In this document: positions 2 to 61,868 of the stretch, one piece after another
How positions within the stretch are numbered: the stretch's first letter is position 1
Layout of the letters: the number at the start of each line of letters is the position of its first letter
From: a virus
IMG/VR virus record: IMGVR_UViG_3300045988_094874
Coordinates: 231-64,230 of that record
Reading direction: 5' to 3' (one strand)
Length of the DNA stretch: 64,000 nt
Made by a program: the position numbers and the translations under genes
The notes under the pieces: model-generated
Database searches by the model: none
The model's input: the letters and a program-made list of their open reading frames with translations, nothing else
What the model was told of the DNA's origin: nothing

Positions 2-679
2 ATGGCAGGCACAGGCTCGTTAAAGGTCTCTAGCAAGTCCACAAAAGCGTTATTTGAAGTCCTAGGGGAAAGTACCACGGTATCTGTTTTCTACAGCAGA
101 ATGGCTGAATATGTGCGTTCTGAGGTGTATCTTGATGGAGACCATATAAATATCCAGAAATTCTTCCCTGATGTACCGTTCTGGGAAATGGACCCTGCCT
201 CTGTGTATATGTATCAGACAGGAAAGACATTTGTTAAGGGAGGACTATTGTACTTGTGGTATAAGAAGTATAATATTTCAGGTCCTACTACATGGTTTGA
301 GGGCTATGAGAGCTATTTGAAGGAATACTTTGAGCTTCACAGTGAATATGGTGCATTTATTTACAATCCTATGCTAAGGGCTGACGCCTCAAAGGCTGTG
401 AAAAGGTTATTCGGGAACATTAAGAAGGCACAGGCTCACTTTGGACTCTCTCATACACAGTGGTTCTGGTGGTGGAAACGTAGCACAGAGGAAATAGATG
501 AATTATCTAACTGGCTTGTGGAATACTATGGTGTGTCTCATGCTGAGGTGCTAGGCTCTAGGAATATGGAAGCATTCAGGGACAACTTTAGGGACAAGAA
601 TACACAGGAAAGAATATCTAAGGAGTTCATTGAGGACTTTGATGACACAGTGAGATACCTTAAAATTGAATATACATAA
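2..679 (+). CDS. hypothetical protein, 5'-truncated at the window edge
   Basis: Long ORF with a WFWWWK tract; an intrinsic terminator follows directly. No recognisable motif. Confidence 0.5.
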   Translation: MAGTGSLKVSSKSTKALFEVLGESTTVSVFYSRMAEYVRSEVYLDGDHINIQKFFPDVPFWEMDPASVYMYQTGKTFVKGGLLYLWYKKYNISGPTTWFEGYESYLKEYFELHSEYGAFIYNPMLRADASKAVKRLFGNIKKAQAHFGLSHTQWFWWWKRSTEEIDELSNWLVEYYGVSHAEVLGSRNMEAFRDNFRDKNTQERISKEFIEDFDDTVRYLKIEYT

Positions 680-680
680 A

Positions 681-707
681 AGGACCTATCACAGGTCCTA
701 TTTCTTT
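681..707 (+). terminator. rho-independent terminator
   Basis: AGGACCT-atcac-AGGTCCT hairpin followed by a T-rich tract, immediately after the stop at 679. Confidence 0.6.
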
Positions 708-1200
708 ACTCTATACTCTATCACCTATTATCTACTCCTTCGTTACACTCAGGGTAGATAATATAATTCTAAGCTCATAAACATAGCGGGGCTATGTTTA
801 TTCACTAAGAATTATATATTATATAAATGAATATTAATTATGCATATTATTAGTATCATATTCATTAGTATAATTTATATACATACCACATGATACAACA
901 CCGCCGCACCGATACTGCAAGTATAACGATTTTTTGCCGTTTTGTCAACTAAAACACTACACTTTTTATTTTATGCATTTTACCCCTACTTTATGCACGA
1001 AATATCCAGAATTATGCATAAAACTAGTAAATTTAGTAGGATAAAGGGGTAAATATTATAGTTAGATAGATAAATGAGTAATAAATCTATGTAACTAGGT
1101 ATAAAGTATATGTAAGAGACCATAGAATAGTATCAGTTTTTCTTAAAAATGTTACATAACTTTTCTTAAACTAATTTATTATGCTATAATATCCTTCAAG

Positions 1201-1332
1201 TTATCCACAGAAAGGGCTAGTTATCCACAGTTTTTGTTACAAATAAATTACAAAATTGAGTTATGTTACTTTTTGGTAACATTGTGAAATTGTGAAATGG
1301 CTTAGTGACGGGCTTTATAAGAGTTATCCACA
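1201..1332 (+). promoter_or_regulatory. cluster of three perfect DnaA boxes (TTATCCACA) at 1201-1209, 1221-1229 and 1324-1332
   Basis: Three exact matches to the 9-mer consensus in the same orientation within 132 bp of AT-rich non-coding DNA. Confidence 0.6.
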
Positions 1333-1512
1333 GGGTAATCATAGAGAATGCACAAATTTAATATTATACTAAAATATCTATAAATAAATTATACTATATT
1401 CATTTTGAAAAATTGGAGGCTATTTTAGTACCAGAAAAGGGTCACAGGATAACCCTTCAACTCATACTTGCGTATTCGTGGAAGGTTATCTTGGAAGACT
1501 AACGCAGACTTC

Positions 1513-1930
1513 CTCGCAGGGCTCGTTGTCTTTGTTATATTACTAAGCTCATAATACTCCTCGCAGAGCTCGTAGTATTATTTCACTAAGTAATATACAG
1601 CCCTGTGTCATTATCTGAGCCTTGAAGAGGGGAAGAGGTCATTCTTGTATAACTTAGTATCATACAATCCCCTGTGTCTTATTAGGACCTTATAGTAGTG
1701 CTTTAGTGGCTTCTAAGAGCTCATAGAAAGCCCTGTATTCAATTTTAGTGTCTTCTGAGGGGTATTATACTGGAGAGATAAAATAGAGCCTTATATGAGC
1801 TAATTTATAGCTCGTTTAGTACCAGAGATAGGATTATTCTCTCAGCTCATTGCATTCGCAGAGAATAATATTCTACTAATATTCATAGATATACTCGCAT
1901 AGCTCATTGCATTCGCAGAATAGCTCGTAT
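1513..1930. repeat. degenerate direct repeat families in a non-coding region
   Basis: CCTCGCAG(G/A)GCTCGT at 1513 and 1559. AGCTCATTGCATTCGCAGA at 1845 and 1902. (A)GCCCTGT(G/A)T recurs at about 1601, 1668 and 1731. Confidence 0.55.
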
Positions 1931-2581
1931 ATCCATTCATAAAGTAGAATACACAGAACTTAAAAATACGATTTAAATAGTACCTTCGGTACAAGGGATA
2001 CGAACTTAATAAATCCTTATGTACCAAGGCATTGGGGAATAAATATGAATTAAATCATATTATACGAATTATATCGAATACTAAAAACAAACCGTTCGGT
2101 CGGTTTTTAAATAGATATGAATGGTGGATAGAGGAATTGGGATGGGACAAGCCCAGTCCATTTTTTAATTGGGGTAGGAACAAGTCCCAGAGGATATGTG
2201 ATTGGTATAGTACAAATACATGGAAGGTGGAAAGGGGAATAAATAGTATAATATATTAGTAATAAAAATTTTTGAATGGTAAATAGGGAAATCAGACCTC
2301 CCTCCCTCCGTCTCCCTTTTTTAATCGACCTTTTTCTTTATACCTTTTTAACCAAGGAAAAATATACCACTTCTTTTTACTAAAAAGTAAAGGGTAAGGT
2401 GATGTAAAGCCCGTCATGACAACGTTCCTGAGGGCGACATGGAAAAATGTTAGGTGAGGTGGTATGGTATATATGGAAGATAATGAGAGAAAGTGATAGA
2501 AAAAGATAGTTTTCTACCTCCTTCCCCATGTCAAATATATCTGACAAAAATTAGTCTATTTTTCATCCTCTCACTTGCCTA

Positions 2582-2634
2582 CCCTTATAGCTAAAAACTA
2601 TATACCCTTATAGCTAAAAACTATTAGCTAAAAT
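2582..2634 (+). repeat. tandem direct repeat (2.5 copies) immediately upstream of a promoter
   Basis: CCCTTATAGCTAAAAACTAT at 2582-2601 and 2605-2624, with a partial third copy TAGCTAAAA. Confidence 0.6.
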
Positions 2635-2646
2635 GCATAAAAGTTG

Positions 2647-2675
2647 TTGACAACAAGGTTAGAAGATGGTATACT
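2647..2675 (+). promoter_or_regulatory. sigma70/sigmaA-type promoter (TTGACA-17 nt-TATACT)
   Basis: Perfect -35 hexamer, 17-nt spacer, near-consensus -10 hexamer. It faces an ORF-free stretch of about 620 nt. Confidence 0.6.
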
Positions 2676-2679
2676 AGTA

Positions 2680-3290
2680 TCATAAAGATAAGGAAATATG
2701 ACAGAGGTCATAAGATACTGAGGCTATCCTCAACTGTCTAGCTCTTTGAAAAGTACAATAAGACAAGGGAGAACAAGCGCCCTACTGAAAGACTTGCAAA
2801 GACTTGCTGGAGTAGCTCAGAGGCGACCGGAGAAGTAAGCAGGTGAGAGAGTAAGATAGCTTATTCCATGACCACCTGACCAGGACAAAGGCGTACTAAG
2901 TGAAAAGCAAGCCAACCGACAACAACTTATTAGCTAGTGCACTATAGCAAAGCCCAGCATATAAAGCAATGAGCCTCTGACTATGCAAGATATACTGTTA
3001 GTTTGAATATATAGCCTTCTGTGCTATCACTATCAAACAATAGGACAGTCACTACTTACAGACATCAAGCCCATTGCTTCGACGTTCAAATAATTGGGAT
3101 TGCTTGCACTAGCTCACGAACGAAATAATATTATATATCAATAAAACCGCTGTGTCTGTAGGATTAAAGACTAACAGTCAAAACAAATACGCAGGCACTA
3201 TATGAAATAATAAATATGCAACCGAAATATATCAGGCTTTGGGAGTGTAACAGTTCCTAGAGTCATAGCCCGAACACAAGGGCACTATAA
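2680..3290 (+). ncRNA. candidate non-coding RNA or long structured leader transcribed from the 2647 promoter
   Basis: Neither strand has an ORF of 60 aa or more between 2259 and 3310. GC is higher and sequence complexity greater than in the AT-rich flanks. Confidence 0.3.
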
Positions 3291-3309
3291 TTAAAAGGAG
3301 TCATGCACT

Positions 3310-3525
3310 ATGACAAAACTACTCTCAGGGCTCACAATAGCCCTTCTCCTGTGTATCTGGGGCTATTCTAGTTCTCAGCCTAACACAGGGCAGATAATGG
3401 CTAAATTTAGCCAACAAGGCAACTACTTTCTACAGGTTGTAGGCGATAATGGAGAGCTTCTAAATATCCCTACAGACTACAAAACCTATACAGCCTCACA
3501 GAAGGGGCAAATGATACCGCAATAA
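3310..3525 (+). CDS. small secreted/lipoprotein-like protein
   Basis: AAAGGAG RBS upstream. Hydrophobic N-terminus LSGLTIALLLCIWG resembles a signal peptide with a possible lipobox. Confidence 0.45.
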   Translation: MTKLLSGLTIALLLCIWGYSSSQPNTGQIMAKFSQQGNYFLQVVGDNGELLNIPTDYKTYTASQKGQMIPQ

Positions 3526-3591
3526 CATTTCAATAATTTAAAATCAAGGGGTCACATTCCCTTAATAATTCACTTAAAAGAGGTAAATATC

Positions 3592-4539
3592 ATGGAAACT
3601 TTCACAATCAACGGACTACTACGCAACTACTTTGGCACAGAAAAAATCGAGCTAGGCGAAAATAAGCCTAAACTTAGCAAGCAACTTAAGAAGCTAAAAA
3701 TCGAGGTATCAGACCTCGAAATCAAGTTTTGGGGTGAAGCTGTAACCGAACTTATTGGACTATACACAGACGCTGACTATCTCAATCTCTATGAAGGTAA
3801 CCCATATGATTATGAGTTCCCTGTGAAATTCTCAGCAGAATTACCGACCTATGATGAACAAGATGAGTGGGCTTTTGATGGCTCATGCAATAATACTGAC
3901 GGGTGCGGAAATATCACAAGTACAGCCCTAGCAACCTACGAAGGGTCTCGTTATTGCTATATCTATAACACTGATGGTGAACCTACCGGACGGTTTTACT
4001 ACTTTAGCCAGCCTACAGGCTTCTGTGTTGCCGATTGGTATCGGGTATGTAACCATGGAGAATACAGCGCACCTCTTGCCCTCCTGCTTGTGCATTATGG
4101 CGTTAAGTGGGAAACCATTAGAAGCGCTAAAACTGAGGTAGGAAACCTTTACAACTCTGAGGGCTTTTGGTCTAACTTTGCTTGCGATAGAGTCATGAAG
4201 TATTTCAGCCCTGACTTTGACTTTGAGGCTGTTCAATTTAAGGACTTAAACGAGCTAAATTTGGTGGAAGAGGGATTGATTTACATTGAAAATGAAGGCT
4301 GGGTGTCAGAAGATGAAGTCGTATTTTCTGATGAATATGATGAGTATATCCTAAGAGACGACGCTGTTTATGCTGACAACATAGATAGTTGGGTATATGA
4401 GGAAGATAGCCAGCTGGACGAGTGCGCAAGCTGTGGAAACCCTATCTACTTAAGCCGAAACTATATCGAAGCTAACGGTTGCGACCATTTTTGCGACCAT
4501 GATTGCCTTGAAAACTACTTCGACATTGTGGAATACTAA
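3592..4539 (+). CDS. hypothetical early protein with a WAFxxSCN domain and a C-terminal Cys/His cluster
   Basis: Strong RBS. The EWAFDGSCNNTDGCGN...CYIYN motif is also present in the 5548 ORF. C-terminal CASCGN...CDHFCDHDC. Confidence 0.6.
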   Translation: METFTINGLLRNYFGTEKIELGENKPKLSKQLKKLKIEVSDLEIKFWGEAVTELIGLYTDADYLNLYEGNPYDYEFPVKFSAELPTYDEQDEWAFDGSCNNTDGCGNITSTALATYEGSRYCYIYNTDGEPTGRFYYFSQPTGFCVADWYRVCNHGEYSAPLALLLVHYGVKWETIRSAKTEVGNLYNSEGFWSNFACDRVMKYFSPDFDFEAVQFKDLNELNLVEEGLIYIENEGWVSEDEVVFSDEYDEYILRDDAVYADNIDSWVYEEDSQLDECASCGNPIYLSRNYIEANGCDHFCDHDCLENYFDIVEY

Positions 4540-4570: not shown

Positions 4571-4780
4571 ATGGTGCTAGGCTGTATAGCTATCTTGCTA
4601 ATCTTCCTAGCGCCTTTTATATACGCTGTGTACATGGTATATAGCTTTCTCAGTCTCCTATTCTGGAGGCTTTTTGTTAGCACTGATGAGGACTTAAGGG
4701 CAATCATTACAGCCCAAAATATTATAGTATGCCTCATCATTATGATAGTTATCTATAATACCATTATGAAAGGAGTATAA
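4571..4780 (+). CDS. small 2-TM membrane protein (start uncertain; the tracked ORF begins at 4499)
   Basis: Two hydrophobic helices. The internal Met at 4571 follows the stop of the upstream gene. Confidence 0.35.
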   Translation: MVLGCIAILLIFLAPFIYAVYMVYSFLSLLFWRLFVSTDEDLRAIITAQNIIVCLIIMIVIYNTIMKGV

Positions 4781-18200: not shown

Positions 18201-19273
18201 TTACAAAGAAACGCAAGATTGATAGGTTTAGGTGGTTGCTAAAAGAGCTAGGAGTATCCTGTGAGCCTAAAATACAAGGTAAGTTAAAGGTAAGTTTCTT
18301 TACACTAAGTGACTTTAAATTACTAAACCTTGTAAAGAGATACTGTACCGAGGATAAAACTCTTCTTGAGCCTTCTCTTACTGAGCTAAACCCTCTTGTG
18401 TACCTTGAGGAAGCAGGTCATTGGGACGGTCATATAAATAAGTTTGGTCTAATACTAGTATCCTCAACAAATAAGGAAACTTTAGATAAAATGCAGATAA
18501 TGGCGATACAATCAGGTGTCCGCGCAAGACTGGCTCTAAGAGAGGAAGCTCATGATAATGTAAGTAATACTTGGGAGTTGTCATATAATCTTGCTAAAAA
18601 GCCTCTGAGTAGGTTTGAAAGTAGGGATATTGACACACGAACTCACCACAAGACTAATTACAATGTCTACTGTGTAACCGTTCCTGAACATAATATTGTT
18701 ATACGCCATAATGGAAAAGTATCAATACAAGGAAACTGTAACTTCGGCTTTTTATATGGTATGCAAGCAAAATCGTTCGTGAATTACGCAAAAACCTATG
18801 GATTGAATTTATCACTCAAGGAAGCTGAGGAGTTCCGAAGTAAGTTCTTTGAAGCCTATCCGACTTTACTGGTATGGCACAGAAGGAACATTGACTTTGC
18901 TAGTAATAAAGGATATGTTGAAGCTCCGTCTGGCAGGAAACGTTTCTTGAGAGATATTTGGTCTGATGATTGGGCTAAGAAGTCTTCTGCTGAAAGACAG
19001 TCACTTAACTCAGCTGTACAAGGCTTTGCTAGTGACTGTTGTATCTCAGCTCTAGCGGATATAGTTTTCTCAGATGAGCTAGACCATTCAAGAGCAAGAG
19101 TATTAGGCTCTGTGCATGACGCTATATTAGTAGAGGCTAAGGAAGACTATGCAGAAGAAGCCTCTCAGATAGTAAAGAACCACATGGAGAACCCTTCCTT
19201 GTTTAAGCTACATAAGCTCTGTGTTCCAATGGTGGCTGATGTAGAAATCGGCAAGGGCTGGGGTATTCACTAA
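15227..19273 (+). CDS. family-A (Pol I-like) DNA polymerase with a 3'-5' exonuclease domain, interrupted by two inteins
   Basis: Exo I LDIETTGLD. Motif A (C)DLSQAELR split after KIIE. Motif B RTQAKS|CNFGFLYG split. Motif C VHDAIL. Extein length after intein removal is about 715 aa. Confidence 0.85.
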   Translation: MKKRDLMVLAKRLSSVELFSLDIETTGLDRYRDKIVSVQISYDFNGKEYDHFIWWEQYTKEEWQAFLKAIAKLNMVTHNGKFDILFLYVHTGVFMELYMDTQVLAHVSGEVELGLKPLVVKYFGDDYDVSKEIKVSGKRDSLTTLKGFITKYFTGTELVMEQTTKENAEAFLSGLKTKAQKNACELIDNEDGTFDVTRKWVHKDRTAMNKLAQQVYDELEGGILISGMSVEATDRLCKAFESLDSTIILETLKDVTQELVEANNKKLVVYGKKDTRYTLKLVPIFKKIIKKYKMIKVYKHEMRAYKAYSIIEKQGIYIDPNRHKVSEQLRAEYTEYLEELNEVAEINWNSTQQVAKVLFGKKGAPVIVDGKEVGKSLGLKPVKKSASGNPSTDDETLVELSAVSEVAKNLREYKRLTKLDTFIKSWDEIAVDGQIHPSFNITARTGRTTCSNPNLQQVPQNSNVRGIIYARPGYKIIECFSGDTEVLTEKGWQRFDSLDKGIKLAQYDCESEEISFEQPLRYIHQENRPTFHYEDRNTSVFATANHNVLTRYTNRVTRKHPFKETNFSRANQFINAGFYTTNYKYSDKYTRFLAMFISDGYMDNYGNISFGFRKQRKIDRCKHVLEELGISFKLNQYTRKGNAKDTMFRIGKVMTQFVNEYSESYKVLSTKTAFELNPAVYLEEAQYWDGTPIVKGKSVRFVSTQKKTLEVMQLMGVFCGIKMVIHRDNHRDKDCHKYAYYVNYKPKGDRFTCMNEQGVDFSNPTYQDVYCITMPLGTCVIRHKGKVSIQSQCDLSQAELRVAADFSGDKNMIHAYQSGSDLHSKTTEMMFGNLEGLDHDELKRKRTQAKSCFSGDTEILTDKGFVPFNMYDGVTRVAQYNIESQEISYTEPLDFRMIPNQKICVFENENTSLKLTPNHECIIQVQNTRKYMKKIPFEELAGHGQSKYAWVNAGYYNYDKNKFIDDKLTRFVACFVADGSYSSSKNAIRFGFTKKRKIDRFRWLLKELGVSCEPKIQGKLKVSFFTLSDFKLLNLVKRYCTEDKTLLEPSLTELNPLVYLEEAGHWDGHINKFGLILVSSTNKETLDKMQIMAIQSGVRARLALREEAHDNVSNTWELSYNLAKKPLSRFESRDIDTRTHHKTNYNVYCVTVPEHNIVIRHNGKVSIQGNCNFGFLYGMQAKSFVNYAKTYGLNLSLKEAEEFRSKFFEAYPTLLVWHRRNIDFASNKGYVEAPSGRKRFLRDIWSDDWAKKSSAERQSLNSAVQGFASDCCISALADIVFSDELDHSRARVLGSVHDAILVEAKEDYAEEASQIVKNHMENPSLFKLHKLCVPMVADVEIGKGWGIH
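16661..17602 (+). mobile_element. intein 1 in DNA polymerase motif A, with a LAGLIDADG homing-endonuclease domain
   Basis: Starts CFSGDTEVL (Hint block A). LAGLIDADG-like LAMFISDGYMDN. Ends ...HKGKVSIQSQ followed by +1 Cys; the terminal residue is Gln rather than Asn. Confidence 0.7.
17780..18736 (+). mobile_element. intein 2 in DNA polymerase motif B, with a LAGLIDADG homing-endonuclease domain
   Basis: Starts CFSGDTEIL. LAGLIDADG-like VACFVADGSYSS. Ends ...HNGKVSIQGN followed by +1 Cys. Paralogous to intein 1. Confidence 0.75.
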
Positions 19274-26514: not shown

Positions 26515-27277
26515 GCCTACTTACGATACATTCATTGAGGAAGTCAATTCATGGTTAGAGAGAGGTAAGGACTCATTTGAAGGGGCACTTAGTCTTACAG
26601 ACAGTAAGATTACGCTTGACCCTAGAGAGTTCCCACCTCTCTTTTATCTAAAGGAAAATGTCCAGCGGATATTGCACCTATTAGAGGTATATAAAAACGC
26701 TGATACCTTTGACAAGCTACTCACTGTGTTCATTAACATATATGTCAAGGACTATGATACTCTAATGGAATATAGCCTTCCGGGAGGGTTTTACACTATA
26801 GAGGAAGCCTACAGACTGGCACAGGGACTGAGGGTACATGGTAGGGAGAGCTACTTTGAAAACTCTCTTGGTAGCTTCCTATCTACTATACCTAGAATAG
26901 TTGTGGATAAGGGGATAGGGTATACTAAGTTGATTAGGGCTCTCAGCTGTGTAACAAGATACTCTGGAAGAAACATAGAGCTTACCAATATGCTATACCT
27001 AATGCCTGAGTGTAAAGTAATCATGAGGATAAGCCCTATGAAACGTGAGGCATTGTTTCAGTTATATGATGTCTACGGAAGGCTAGAACACAGGAGTGAA
27101 TTGACTACCTACATATCTAATATTGACTTTAGATGGTGGAGTTACCAAAATAGGAGGGTAGTCCCTCCTGTAATTGGTGACTATGAAAAACTTACTATGA
27201 AGAAAGAGGATTTTATAATTCCTGAGAGGATAAAAAATGAAAACATTAACCTCCTATATAATAAAATATATAGATGA
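26435..27277 (+). CDS. hypothetical protein (true start probably downstream of 26514)
   Basis: The tracked ORF overlaps the previous gene's acidic tail by 80 nt in another frame, so an internal start is likely. Confidence 0.4.
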   Translation: MNLLVMSKMMKTNTQMMMTKMMSGTTKPTYDTFIEEVNSWLERGKDSFEGALSLTDSKITLDPREFPPLFYLKENVQRILHLLEVYKNADTFDKLLTVFINIYVKDYDTLMEYSLPGGFYTIEEAYRLAQGLRVHGRESYFENSLGSFLSTIPRIVVDKGIGYTKLIRALSCVTRYSGRNIELTNMLYLMPECKVIMRISPMKREALFQLYDVYGRLEHRSELTTYISNIDFRWWSYQNRRVVPPVIGDYEKLTMKKEDFIIPERIKNENINLLYNKIYR

Positions 27278-61795: not shown

Positions 61796-61868
61796 AGAGC
61801 GTAGAGGGATTTGAACCCCCGATAGTGAGGTTGCGGCTCACGGTCTTAAACCACTTGACGATACGCTC
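61796..61868 (-). tRNA. tRNA-like element, anticodon GCA (Cys) by manual fold
   Basis: Reverse-complement folds as: acceptor GAGCGTA/TACGCTC; D arm GTC-AAGTGGTTTAA-GAC; anticodon arm GTGAG-CCGCAAC-CTCAC; T arm GGGGG-TTCAAAT-CCCTC. Position 33 is C rather than U. Its 3' portion overlaps the HNH gene's last codons. Confidence 0.45.

Follow-up and report, generated by a model that had tools for sequence, protein, structure and literature searches.

A probable large structured RNA at the head of the early operon in a narrow clade of tailed phages

We analysed a stretch of viral DNA of 64,000 nucleotides (nt), positions 231 to 64,230 of the IMG/VR record IMGVR_UViG_3300045988_094874 (hereafter the window), which constitutes the nearly complete genome, of about 64 kb, of a tailed phage. 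Between a near-consensus promoter and the gene starting at position 3310 lies a segment devoid of coding capacity, and the comparison of 26 homologous copies indicates that it has very probably been selected as an RNA structure on the + strand. We regard the segment from 2682 to about 3285 as a previously undescribed, clade-specific RNA family of about 600 nt, belonging to the kind called large ornate phage RNAs. The reading that we favour, with a probability of about 0.45, is that this RNA would work through its own fold, instead of merely tuning the gene behind it. A preliminary description of the same DNA, made from its sequence alone, had proposed a non-coding structured transcript of about 600 nt at this place; covariation, the lack of a conserved open reading frame (ORF) and the strand signal of the G-U pairs agree with that proposal.

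Results

Compensatory changes reveal a conserved fold on the + strand

Homologues were gathered from IMG/VR, metagenomes and Logan/ENA assemblies by means of the two flanking proteins and of conserved motifs of 20-29 nt; a 20-mer taken from the core strand at 2770-2805 retrieved all members of the family. After removal of duplicates we retained 26 distinct copies, 75-92% identical to that of the window. Compensatory changes are visible by eye. The two strands of helix H1 are UAUGAC/GUCAUA in some phages and GGAGC/GCUCC, GGUUAC/GUUACC or GAAAC/GUUUC in others. A prediction with RNAalifold comprised 120 pairs, and double changes were seen in 30 of these. A nested model was then curated from the covarying helices and scored on structure-blind MAFFT alignments. 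With 21 sequences, 97.6% of the cells of its 128 pairs were paired, and 32 pairs and 176 cells displayed a compensatory change. None of 500 column shuffles reached these values, and sliding the partners by 1-3 columns left only 33-41% pairing and 3-16 compensatory pairs. The set of 26 sequences, to which the most divergent copies (L063 and L068) had been added, gave 122 pairs in 22 helices, again 97.6% paired, with 39 compensatory pairs and 222 compensatory cells compared to 4-19 pairs in the slid controls; at least one compensatory pair was carried by 16 of the 22 helices. The slid-partner control, which keeps the relatedness of the sequences, is fairer than shuffling and was passed clearly. 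L063 and L068 rewrite helices that were invariant or nearly so in the first set. In the divergent copies of H16, G-C is replaced by A-U and A-U by G-C; H19 has four changed pairs in L063; and in H19, H22 and H23 the copies L063, L068 and L002 carry wholly different sequences while pairing is kept.

The alignment contains 256 G-U cells distributed over 40 pairs, and a reading on the - strand lowers the pairing to 89%, indicating that the RNA lies on the + strand, in agreement with the direction of the promoter. Almost all helices of the model are also present in the minimum free energy (MFE) fold computed from the window sequence by itself (z = -2.3, compared to -1.3 for the - strand). Covariation across related phages and in silico folding had both been put forward as checks in the preliminary description; the former yielded the compensatory pairs reported above, and in the latter the helices were reproduced by the MFE fold.

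The segment does not behave as coding DNA. Its longest ORF on either strand of 2680-3309 spans 35 amino acids (aa) and none is conserved, so that the earlier report of about 620 nt free of ORFs holds up to the ribosome-binding site and ATG of the gene at 3310. A translated small ORF had been considered as an alternative, but no small ORF is common to all 26 homologues, where insertions and deletions break the frames, and the variable columns lack a 3-nt periodicity (91/103/108). Independent gene calls on six other contigs of the clade left the interval empty. Recoding of stop codons was rejected as the cause of the ORF gap, all three stop codons being found in all six frames. The GC content of the segment (0.40-0.46) had been described as higher than that of its surroundings, which is correct with respect to most of the upstream non-coding DNA (0.23-0.38) but not with respect to the genome, whose mean is 0.408.

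It is very improbable that this pattern reflects something other than an RNA, be it a DNA-level element (packaging site, single-strand origin or protein-binding array), unrecognised small proteins or chance. The region is indeed non-coding, it lies beside a probable origin, and single-stranded DNA can form G-T pairs. However, the conserved sequence sets in where a conserved promoter is predicted to start transcription, the 39 compensatory pairs are accompanied by strand-specific wobble pairs, and relatives carry insertions with GNRA tetraloops, in addition to the lack of a conserved ORF or of codon periodicity. Moreover, known single-strand initiation signals are far shorter than 600 nt.

Anatomy of the RNA

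The coordinates of the helices and of the flanking elements are collected in Table 1. In the 5' domain, H0, H1 and H2 form a three-way junction, which is followed by H3. Compensatory pairs were counted in H1 (6), H2 (2), H4 (3), H6 (3), H8 (4) and H9 (3). The CUAU loop of H2 is exactly complementary to the AUAG loop of H9; both loops are invariant while both stems covary, which suggests a loop-loop contact, either within one molecule or between molecules. The core strand contains AAAGACUUGC twice, and its AAAGACU recurs at 3166-3172. Within the helix that closes the central domain the order is H10b, H10c, H18 and then the stack of H11-H16, with compensatory changes in H10 (inner pair), H10c, H18, H12, H14 and H16. 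The linker that follows shows length changes of 3 nt and of up to 12 nt in relatives, together with substitutions, and displays no supported pairing. In the 3' domain, compensatory pairs were found in H19 (3), H22 (4) and H23 (1).

Relatives carry optional insertions with GNRA-type loops: a CCUAGGC-GCAA-GCCUAUG hairpin in the H3 loop and a GUAACC-GCAA-GGUUAC hairpin inserted at two different sites in different relatives. The copy L061 carries a 41-nt insertion. Peripheral hairpins capped in this manner are typical of large, compactly folded RNAs. The GNRA insertions and the invariance of loops and junction strands beside covarying stems are read as signs of a compact three-dimensional fold.

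Two further observations were made within the segment. Purines 3163, 3185 and 3187 of the 3' domain, when the sequences are compared by eye, change together, as A,A,A or G,G,G, without forming standard pairs; this may correspond to a non-canonical interaction or to simple linkage. An antisense promoter-like site (CAGACA/TAGACA-17-TATAAT/TATTAT) is located on the - strand at 3158-3130, overlapping the linker and the 5' strand of H19. Several relatives keep it, among them L002 (5297-5269) and L068 (3565-3537), its spacing is altered in the relatives that have the 3-nt linker insertion, and it is probably a by-product of composition.

Table 1. Features of the structured segment and its surroundings (window coordinates).
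Feature	Position	Strand	Description
Operator-like palindrome 1	2586..2602		TATAG-CTAAAAA-CTATA; centre about -88 from predicted start; inside direct repeat 2580-2601
Operator-like palindrome 2	2609..2625		TATAG-CTAAAAA-CTATT; centre about -65, 23 bp from palindrome 1; inside direct repeat 2603-2624
Sigma-70-type early promoter (predicted)	2647..2675	+	TTGACA 2647-2652, 17-nt spacer, TATACT 2670-2675; TG 2667-2668 (extended -10)
5' domain	2682..2931	+	Compensatory changes; MFE fold gives the same helices
H0	2687-92/2734-38	+
H1	2697-2702/2707-12	+
H2	2721-23/2728-30	+	Invariant loop CUAU 2724-2727
H3	2743-48/2764-69	+
Core strand	2770..2805	+	AGAACAAGCGCCCUACUGAAAGACUUGCAAAGACUU; nearly invariant, mostly unpaired; few variable positions in 26 sequences
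H4	2803-08/2906-11	+	Encloses H5-H9 (long arm)
H9	2849-55/2860-66	+	Ends long arm; invariant loop AUAG 2856-2859
Central domain	2932..3114	+	Closed by 10-bp helix H10
H10	2932-41/3105-14	+	Closing helix
H10b, H11-H13		+	Inner helices
H10c	2953-55/3096-98	+	Inner helix
H18	2965-71/3072-78	+	Inner helix
H14	2994-99/3044-49	+	Stack
H15	3001-06/3033-38	+	Stack
H16	3011-16/3021-27	+	Stack, hairpin
AU-rich linker	3115..3150	+	36 nt, 28% GC; variable in length and sequence
3' domain	3151..3285	+	Contains conserved strand AAUAAAUAUGCAACCG
H19	3152-59/3191-98	+	Encloses H21
H21	3169-72/3176-79	+	Hairpin
H22	3235-45/3254-64	+	Hairpin
H23	3268-71/3280-83	+	Hairpin
Translation start region	3294..3314	+	Shine-Dalgarno sequence AAAGGAG 3294-3300, 9 nt before ATG 3310
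Start-codon hairpin	3300-3305/3309-3314	+	GUCAUG-CAC-UAUGAC; weak; holds the start codon
First downstream gene	3310..3525	+	71 aa; N-terminal signal-peptide-like segment

A conserved promoter flanked by operator-like palindromes

The promoter upstream of the fold scores 11/12 and is the top + strand site of the first 8 kb, where promoter-like sites overall are not above chance (29 found compared to 24 ± 4.9). All relatives that were aligned or scanned across this site retain it, in the form TTGACA/TTGACT-17-TATACT/TATAAT. Transcription is predicted to start near A2682. The sequence between -10 and +4 is variable, and invariant RNA sequence begins at 2686 (AGAUAAGGAAA), about 4 nt past the predicted start. 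From its position, we infer that this is the first early promoter. Its near-consensus character, already recognised in the preliminary description, is thus reinforced by the extended -10 element and by its conservation.

The same description had reported iterons upstream of the promoter, in 2.5 tandem copies. The repeats do exist: identical 22-mers are found at 2580-2601 and 2603-2624, 23 nt apart, with a partial third copy TAGCTAAAA at 2626-2634. However, the direct repeats are not kept in relatives, which conserve only two inverted repeats, TATAG-N7-CTATA, 23 bp apart. Their half-sites TATAG/CTATA are constant and their 7-bp centres vary (CTAAAAA, GCGTAGC, CTAAAGA, CTATTAA, TTATTTC), which argues for an operator-like layout and not for replication iterons. 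Elsewhere in the window the pattern has a single match, with 1 mismatch, at 26797, and is therefore not enriched. The iteron interpretation was rejected on these grounds, and we propose that the palindromes are putative sites for a dimeric DNA-binding protein, activator or repressor.

The junction with the early genes

Neither an intrinsic terminator nor a second + strand promoter-like site was found between 2676 and 3309 in the window or at the corresponding places of L002 and L068, and the sequence after H23 is A-rich, not U-rich. A TATAAT at 3287-3292 was discarded as a second promoter, having no -35 element and not being conserved in L002. In the absence of a terminator after the fold, the early genes would be transcribed through the RNA, and this would make up the 5' portion of the early mRNA unless cleaved off. 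The preliminary description had hesitated between a free non-coding RNA and a very long structured leader; the structured part of this proposal stands, and the sequence by itself is compatible with both options. That this gene has its own ribosome-binding site, as also stated there, is borne out by its Shine-Dalgarno sequence.

The start-codon hairpin occurs in 25 of the 26 copies (L059 and L063 alter its loop or stem compatibly), is absent in L068 and is thus probably a feature of the gene, outside the RNA fold. Complementarities also connect the fold with the start region: GUCAUAG (3262-3268) with CUAUGAC (3308-3314), CUCUUU (2742-2747) with the Shine-Dalgarno sequence, and GACUU with GAGUC at the Shine-Dalgarno sequence. 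All are invariant and thus receive no support from covariation. In L068 the start region differs, and the hairpin and the Shine-Dalgarno pairings are lost while the fold remains intact. These long-range pairings, as well as UUGCA with UGCAA, which came from RNAalifold or from inspection by eye, were left out of the model for being invariant and lost in L068, and the same two properties weaken the reading of the RNA as a simple translational switch.

The first gene behind the RNA is not always the same. The 71-aa protein encoded in the window has no Pfam or PHROG match. In most relatives the RNA is followed first by an extra 90-aa gene and then by the 71-aa gene, with the same Shine-Dalgarno-ATGACAAAA sequence at the junction; the extra gene is located at 5449-5721 in L002 and at homologous places elsewhere, and is absent in the window, L010, L012 and L015. 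Both alternative first genes share the ribosome-binding site and the first codons (Met-Thr-Lys). As the first gene varies, the conserved unit is the non-coding stretch and not its link to one gene.

These data bear on the possibility that the RNA is a cis-acting leader of the early mRNA, serving as a shield against RNase J1/RNase Y, conferring resistance to termination or gating ribosomes in response to a factor. In 26/26 copies the RNA immediately precedes the first early gene, whichever gene this is, without terminator or promoter in between; the structure sets in, with H0, 5 nt past the predicted 5' end; in all copies but one a small hairpin holds the start codon, with the GUCAUAG and CUCUUU complementarities described above; and terminator-like sites occur inside the early operon, at 4652 and 5197. 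Known leaders are much smaller, about 70 nt for put RNA, about 120 nt for EAR and 200-300 nt for T-boxes, and about 600 nt with 22 helices is out of scale with them. In addition, the proposed start-region pairings are invariant and those with the Shine-Dalgarno sequence are lost in L068, whose fold is kept, the orthologous operon of a sister clade is expressed with a short leader, and no cis-regulatory family of Rfam was matched. Altogether we consider a leader function unlikely, although it is the nearest competitor of an RNA acting through its own fold.

The RNA is known from a single clade

Two patterns of the conserved core retrieved the same 17 contigs from IMG/VR, and a metagenome scan retrieved 9 contigs of about 64 kb or fragments thereof, the one with a stated source coming from a human metagenome. 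Two conserved-motif patterns had no match in 185,579 bacterial and archaeal genomes. A covariance model of the central domain (R1; 192 positions, 52 pairs) detected exactly one copy per genome of the clade, with 166-225 bits; it had no other match in the window and none in the sister clade or in phage P087. The 315-aa protein encoded next to the RNA had no match in isolated phages. Its counterpart in the sister clade is 33-35% identical and is found in the same gene order: terminase, RuvC-like gene, 315-aa gene, spacer, early genes and primase-helicase. There, neither nhmmer nor R1 found a homologue of the RNA, and the spacer contains tandem promoters followed by an AT-rich leader of only 150-200 nt. 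As the same gene order exists without it, the RNA is best described as an accessory, clade-specific element within an otherwise shared layout.

In two sister-clade contigs, L064 (6780-7045) and L066 (7640-8001), the tandem promoters are near-consensus and about 90 nt apart, and short leaders replace the large RNA. The leader of L064 starts with AGAATCATAGGAATAAGGGGAAAG, which resembles the first bases of the window RNA (TCATAAAGATAAGGAAA).

Comparison with known RNA families

Rfam 15 was scanned with the whole window at the gathering score and with 600-3700 at E <= 5 with lax filters. The only match was a tRNA; ROOL (RF03087), GOLLD (RF01998) and OLE (RF01071) were not matched, nor were riboswitch or leader families, self-splicing introns, RNase P, tmRNA, 6S RNA or small ribozymes. 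The Rfam scan that had been proposed for this segment thus assigns 2682-3285 to no known family. ARAGORN found only a tRNA-Cys (GCA) gene, elsewhere in the window (61796-61868, - strand). To our knowledge, bacterial and phage RNAs of such size and complexity are rare, the usual list comprising OLE, GOLLD, ROOL, HEARO and raiA, and we know of no function for the phage-borne members of this list.

ROOL is a multi-helix RNA of about 580-660 nt from phages and prophages of Firmicutes, including Lactobacillales (PMC12286853, PMC5737381). The RNA described here resembles it in size, in its many covarying helices, in its conserved loops and in its poorly conserved internal linker (PMC12286853, PMC5737381). 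In contrast to ROOL, it is the 5' part of a putative early operon behind a sigma-70 promoter that appears to be regulated, and it was found in a single narrow phage clade. ROOL is often located beside tRNA genes; the only tRNA gene of the window, that for Cys, is several kb away across the window ends. The homo-oligomeric cage of ROOL is held by intermolecular kissing loops, for which the only candidate counterpart here is the pair of invariant complementary loops CUAU/AUAG. GOLLD, a large ornate RNA, is carried by phages and prophages of Lactobacillales and other groups and is expressed while the phage grows (PMC12286853); it shares with the present RNA a two-part architecture with a linker (PMC12286853). 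It differs in being longer than 800 nt and in residing in tRNA islands, whereas the host-type promoter of the window RNA implies early expression. Both ROOL and GOLLD form RNA-only cages or assemblies whose purpose is unexplained (PMC12286853). As for OLE, its context is a bacterial chromosome with oap genes; the element described here lies in a phage genome.

Two functionally defined RNAs offer looser parallels. ColE1 RNA II is a structured replication primer of about 550 nt, made from a strong, constitutive-type promoter, and its fold decides its function. The window RNA resembles it as a structured transcript of about 600 nt behind a strong promoter in a phage that has a Pol I-type polymerase, but it lacks a conserved antisense partner, the site at 3158-3130 losing its spacing, and it is followed directly by coding genes. 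The pRNA of phi29 (about 120-174 nt, strong early promoter) makes loop-loop contacts between copies in a terminase-less, protein-primed packaging system; the parallel is only formal, in the complementary invariant loops, as the window phage has a normal large terminase and pRNA gave no Rfam match.

Earlier screens for structured RNAs in phages and in the human microbiome reported only motifs of 29-151 nt (PMC10690425) and 27-219 bp (PMC8040213), and could at best have caught fragments of this RNA. Three of its conserved strings had no match in 200 of the 408 supplement files of one of these screens. We regard the setting as new for a large ornate phage RNA: the 5' end of an early operon, behind a host-type promoter flanked by operator-like sites.

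A possible origin transcript

An anatomical parallel comes from the lactococcal phage c2, whose PE1-T is the non-coding transcript of the first early promoter and requires its length and structure for origin function (PMC7150918). In the c2 record, EP1 and EP2 are 361 nt apart within an origin region of 611 bp. The window RNA is likewise a non-coding structured transcript upstream of early genes in a replication-linked non-coding region; it differs in length (about 600 nt compared to about 360 nt) and in that c2 has a second promoter before the first gene, whereas none was seen here. Unlike the PE1-T system, the window phage carries its own polymerase, an initiator-like protein and a primase-helicase. 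It could be envisaged that the RNA, like PE1-T or ColE1 RNA II, is a replication-origin transcript, a persistent RNA-DNA hybrid of which would prime or activate DNA synthesis by the family A polymerase of the phage.

Such a role would fit the c2-like anatomy, in which the first early promoter of a phage of Lactobacillales gives a structure-dependent non-coding transcript (PMC7150918). It would also fit the 2.6-kb stretch of non-coding DNA that includes the RNA, where a 95%-conserved block carries three perfect DnaA boxes (1201-1332), as well as the PolA-type polymerase of the phage and the AT-rich stretch at 3115-3150 within the transcript. The origin types of c2-like phages are interchangeable and unrelated in sequence (PMC7150918), with which the absence of the RNA from the sister clade would be consistent. 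However, no equivalent of the PE2 promoter precedes the first gene, nhmmer found nothing significant against the c2 origin region, and neither this origin nor any phage record shows sequence similarity. With its own initiator-like protein and primase-helicase, and a cluster of DnaA boxes 1.4 kb upstream, the phage would not need an RNA primer. Moreover, the GNRA-capped hairpins and invariant loops point to a compact fold and not to a hybrid, and the RNA is missing from the sister clade, whose replication genes are orthologous. From these considerations an origin transcript appears still less likely than a leader.

Genome context

The RNA region forms the downstream end of a non-coding stretch of 2.6 kb (680-3309), which has a 324-aa gene on one side and the early genes on the other. 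Among the + strand genes, found up to about 27.9 kb, are those for a RepB-type primase-helicase, an initiator-like helix-turn-helix protein and an intein-bearing family A polymerase; the large terminase is among the - strand genes. The polymerase gene (15227-19273, 1348 aa) is split by an intein that comprises Hint and LAGLIDADG domains. At the nucleotide level the window matched none of 50,697 deposited phage records (megablast, and blastn with word size 11). The nearest isolates are the P087-like phages of Lactococcus, with whose terminase that of the window shares only 25% identity; the RNA has no similarity to these phages.

The related contigs were drawn from IMG/VR and from ENA metagenome assemblies, with human metagenome and human oral metagenome as stated sources. 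At 13480-14973 the window encodes an LPXTG-anchored surface protein of the collagen-binding type (Big_8, Collagen_bind and Gram_pos_anchor domains), whose closest named relatives, 63-73% identical, are from Streptococcus sp. and S. panodentis. A function akin to lysogenic conversion or in adhesion is possible for this protein, in an otherwise lytic-looking genome layout. Judging from these relatives and from the metagenome sources, the host is most likely an oral Streptococcus.

The remainder of the spacer displays features of its own. The block 680-1599 is 88-100% identical across 13 relatives and more conserved than the flanking genes. It contains three perfect DnaA boxes TTATCCACA in the same orientation (at 1201, 1221 and 1324); genome-wide, DnaA-box-like 9-mers number 47 compared to 19 ± 4.8 expected, a value reached in 0 of 100 shuffles. 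The block is thus a candidate DnaA-dependent origin or DnaA sink. A second promoter scoring 11/12 (TTGACA-17-TATACT) lies on the - strand at 948-920 and faces a bidirectional terminator hairpin at 681-699. The predicted - strand transcript, of about 230 nt and with an inverted repeat (761-787/791-817), may be another small RNA, in a region too conserved for covariation. The part 1600-2599 is variable (43-90% identity per 100 nt). Copies of a repeat family, TCCTCGCAGnGCTCGT, start at 1511, 1558 and 1892, those of another repeat, of 35 nt, at 1828 and 1885, and an ORF of 75 aa with a TTG start is located at 2032-2259.

Discussion

The size and complexity of the RNA, its invariant loops beside covarying stems, its GNRA hairpins, its linker and its sporadic distribution echo ROOL and GOLLD, which leads us to favour an RNA that would act autonomously, through its own fold, over a cis-acting leader, and a leader in turn over an origin transcript. 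We propose that host RNA polymerase would start at the strong extended -10 promoter, whose activity is probably modulated by a DNA-binding protein at the two upstream palindromes. The transcript would fold into a 5' domain, a central domain closed by its 10-bp helix and, via a floppy AU-rich linker, a 3' domain, and would then run on into the early genes. The RNA may be released from the mRNA by processing and, like ROOL and GOLLD, would act by its three-dimensional fold, whether as scaffold, as decoy or as a particle that assembles itself. Contacts could be made by the CUAU (H2) and AUAG (H9) tetraloops, by the 36 nt of the invariant core strand and by the optional hairpins with GNRA caps.

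Several points weigh against this autonomous role. The family belongs to one narrow phage clade, and part of the covariation reflects few lineages and the shared ancestry of the cells. The RNA shows no similarity to ROOL or GOLLD and has no tRNA gene as neighbour. The CUAU/AUAG complementarity and the core strand, being invariant, are without covariation support. Neither a terminator nor a processing signal follows the fold, so that by architecture the RNA is a leader, and its anatomy also fits the origin transcript of phage c2.

One could go further and imagine a new class of large ornate RNA, made at the start of infection in oral streptococci, that perhaps assembles through its complementary loops into a particle capturing or disabling a host component, or that is catalytic. 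We hold this elaboration to be rather unlikely; if true, a defined promoter, a defined expression time and an operator-controlled switch would here be combined in such an RNA for the first time. If instead the RNA should prove to be an origin transcript, transcription-primed replication of the c2 type would extend to a very different phage group. The RNA offers clear start coordinates, a strong promoter with probable operators, a position at the head of an operon and, in the sister clade lacking it, a natural control, by which the role of large phage RNAs becomes directly testable.

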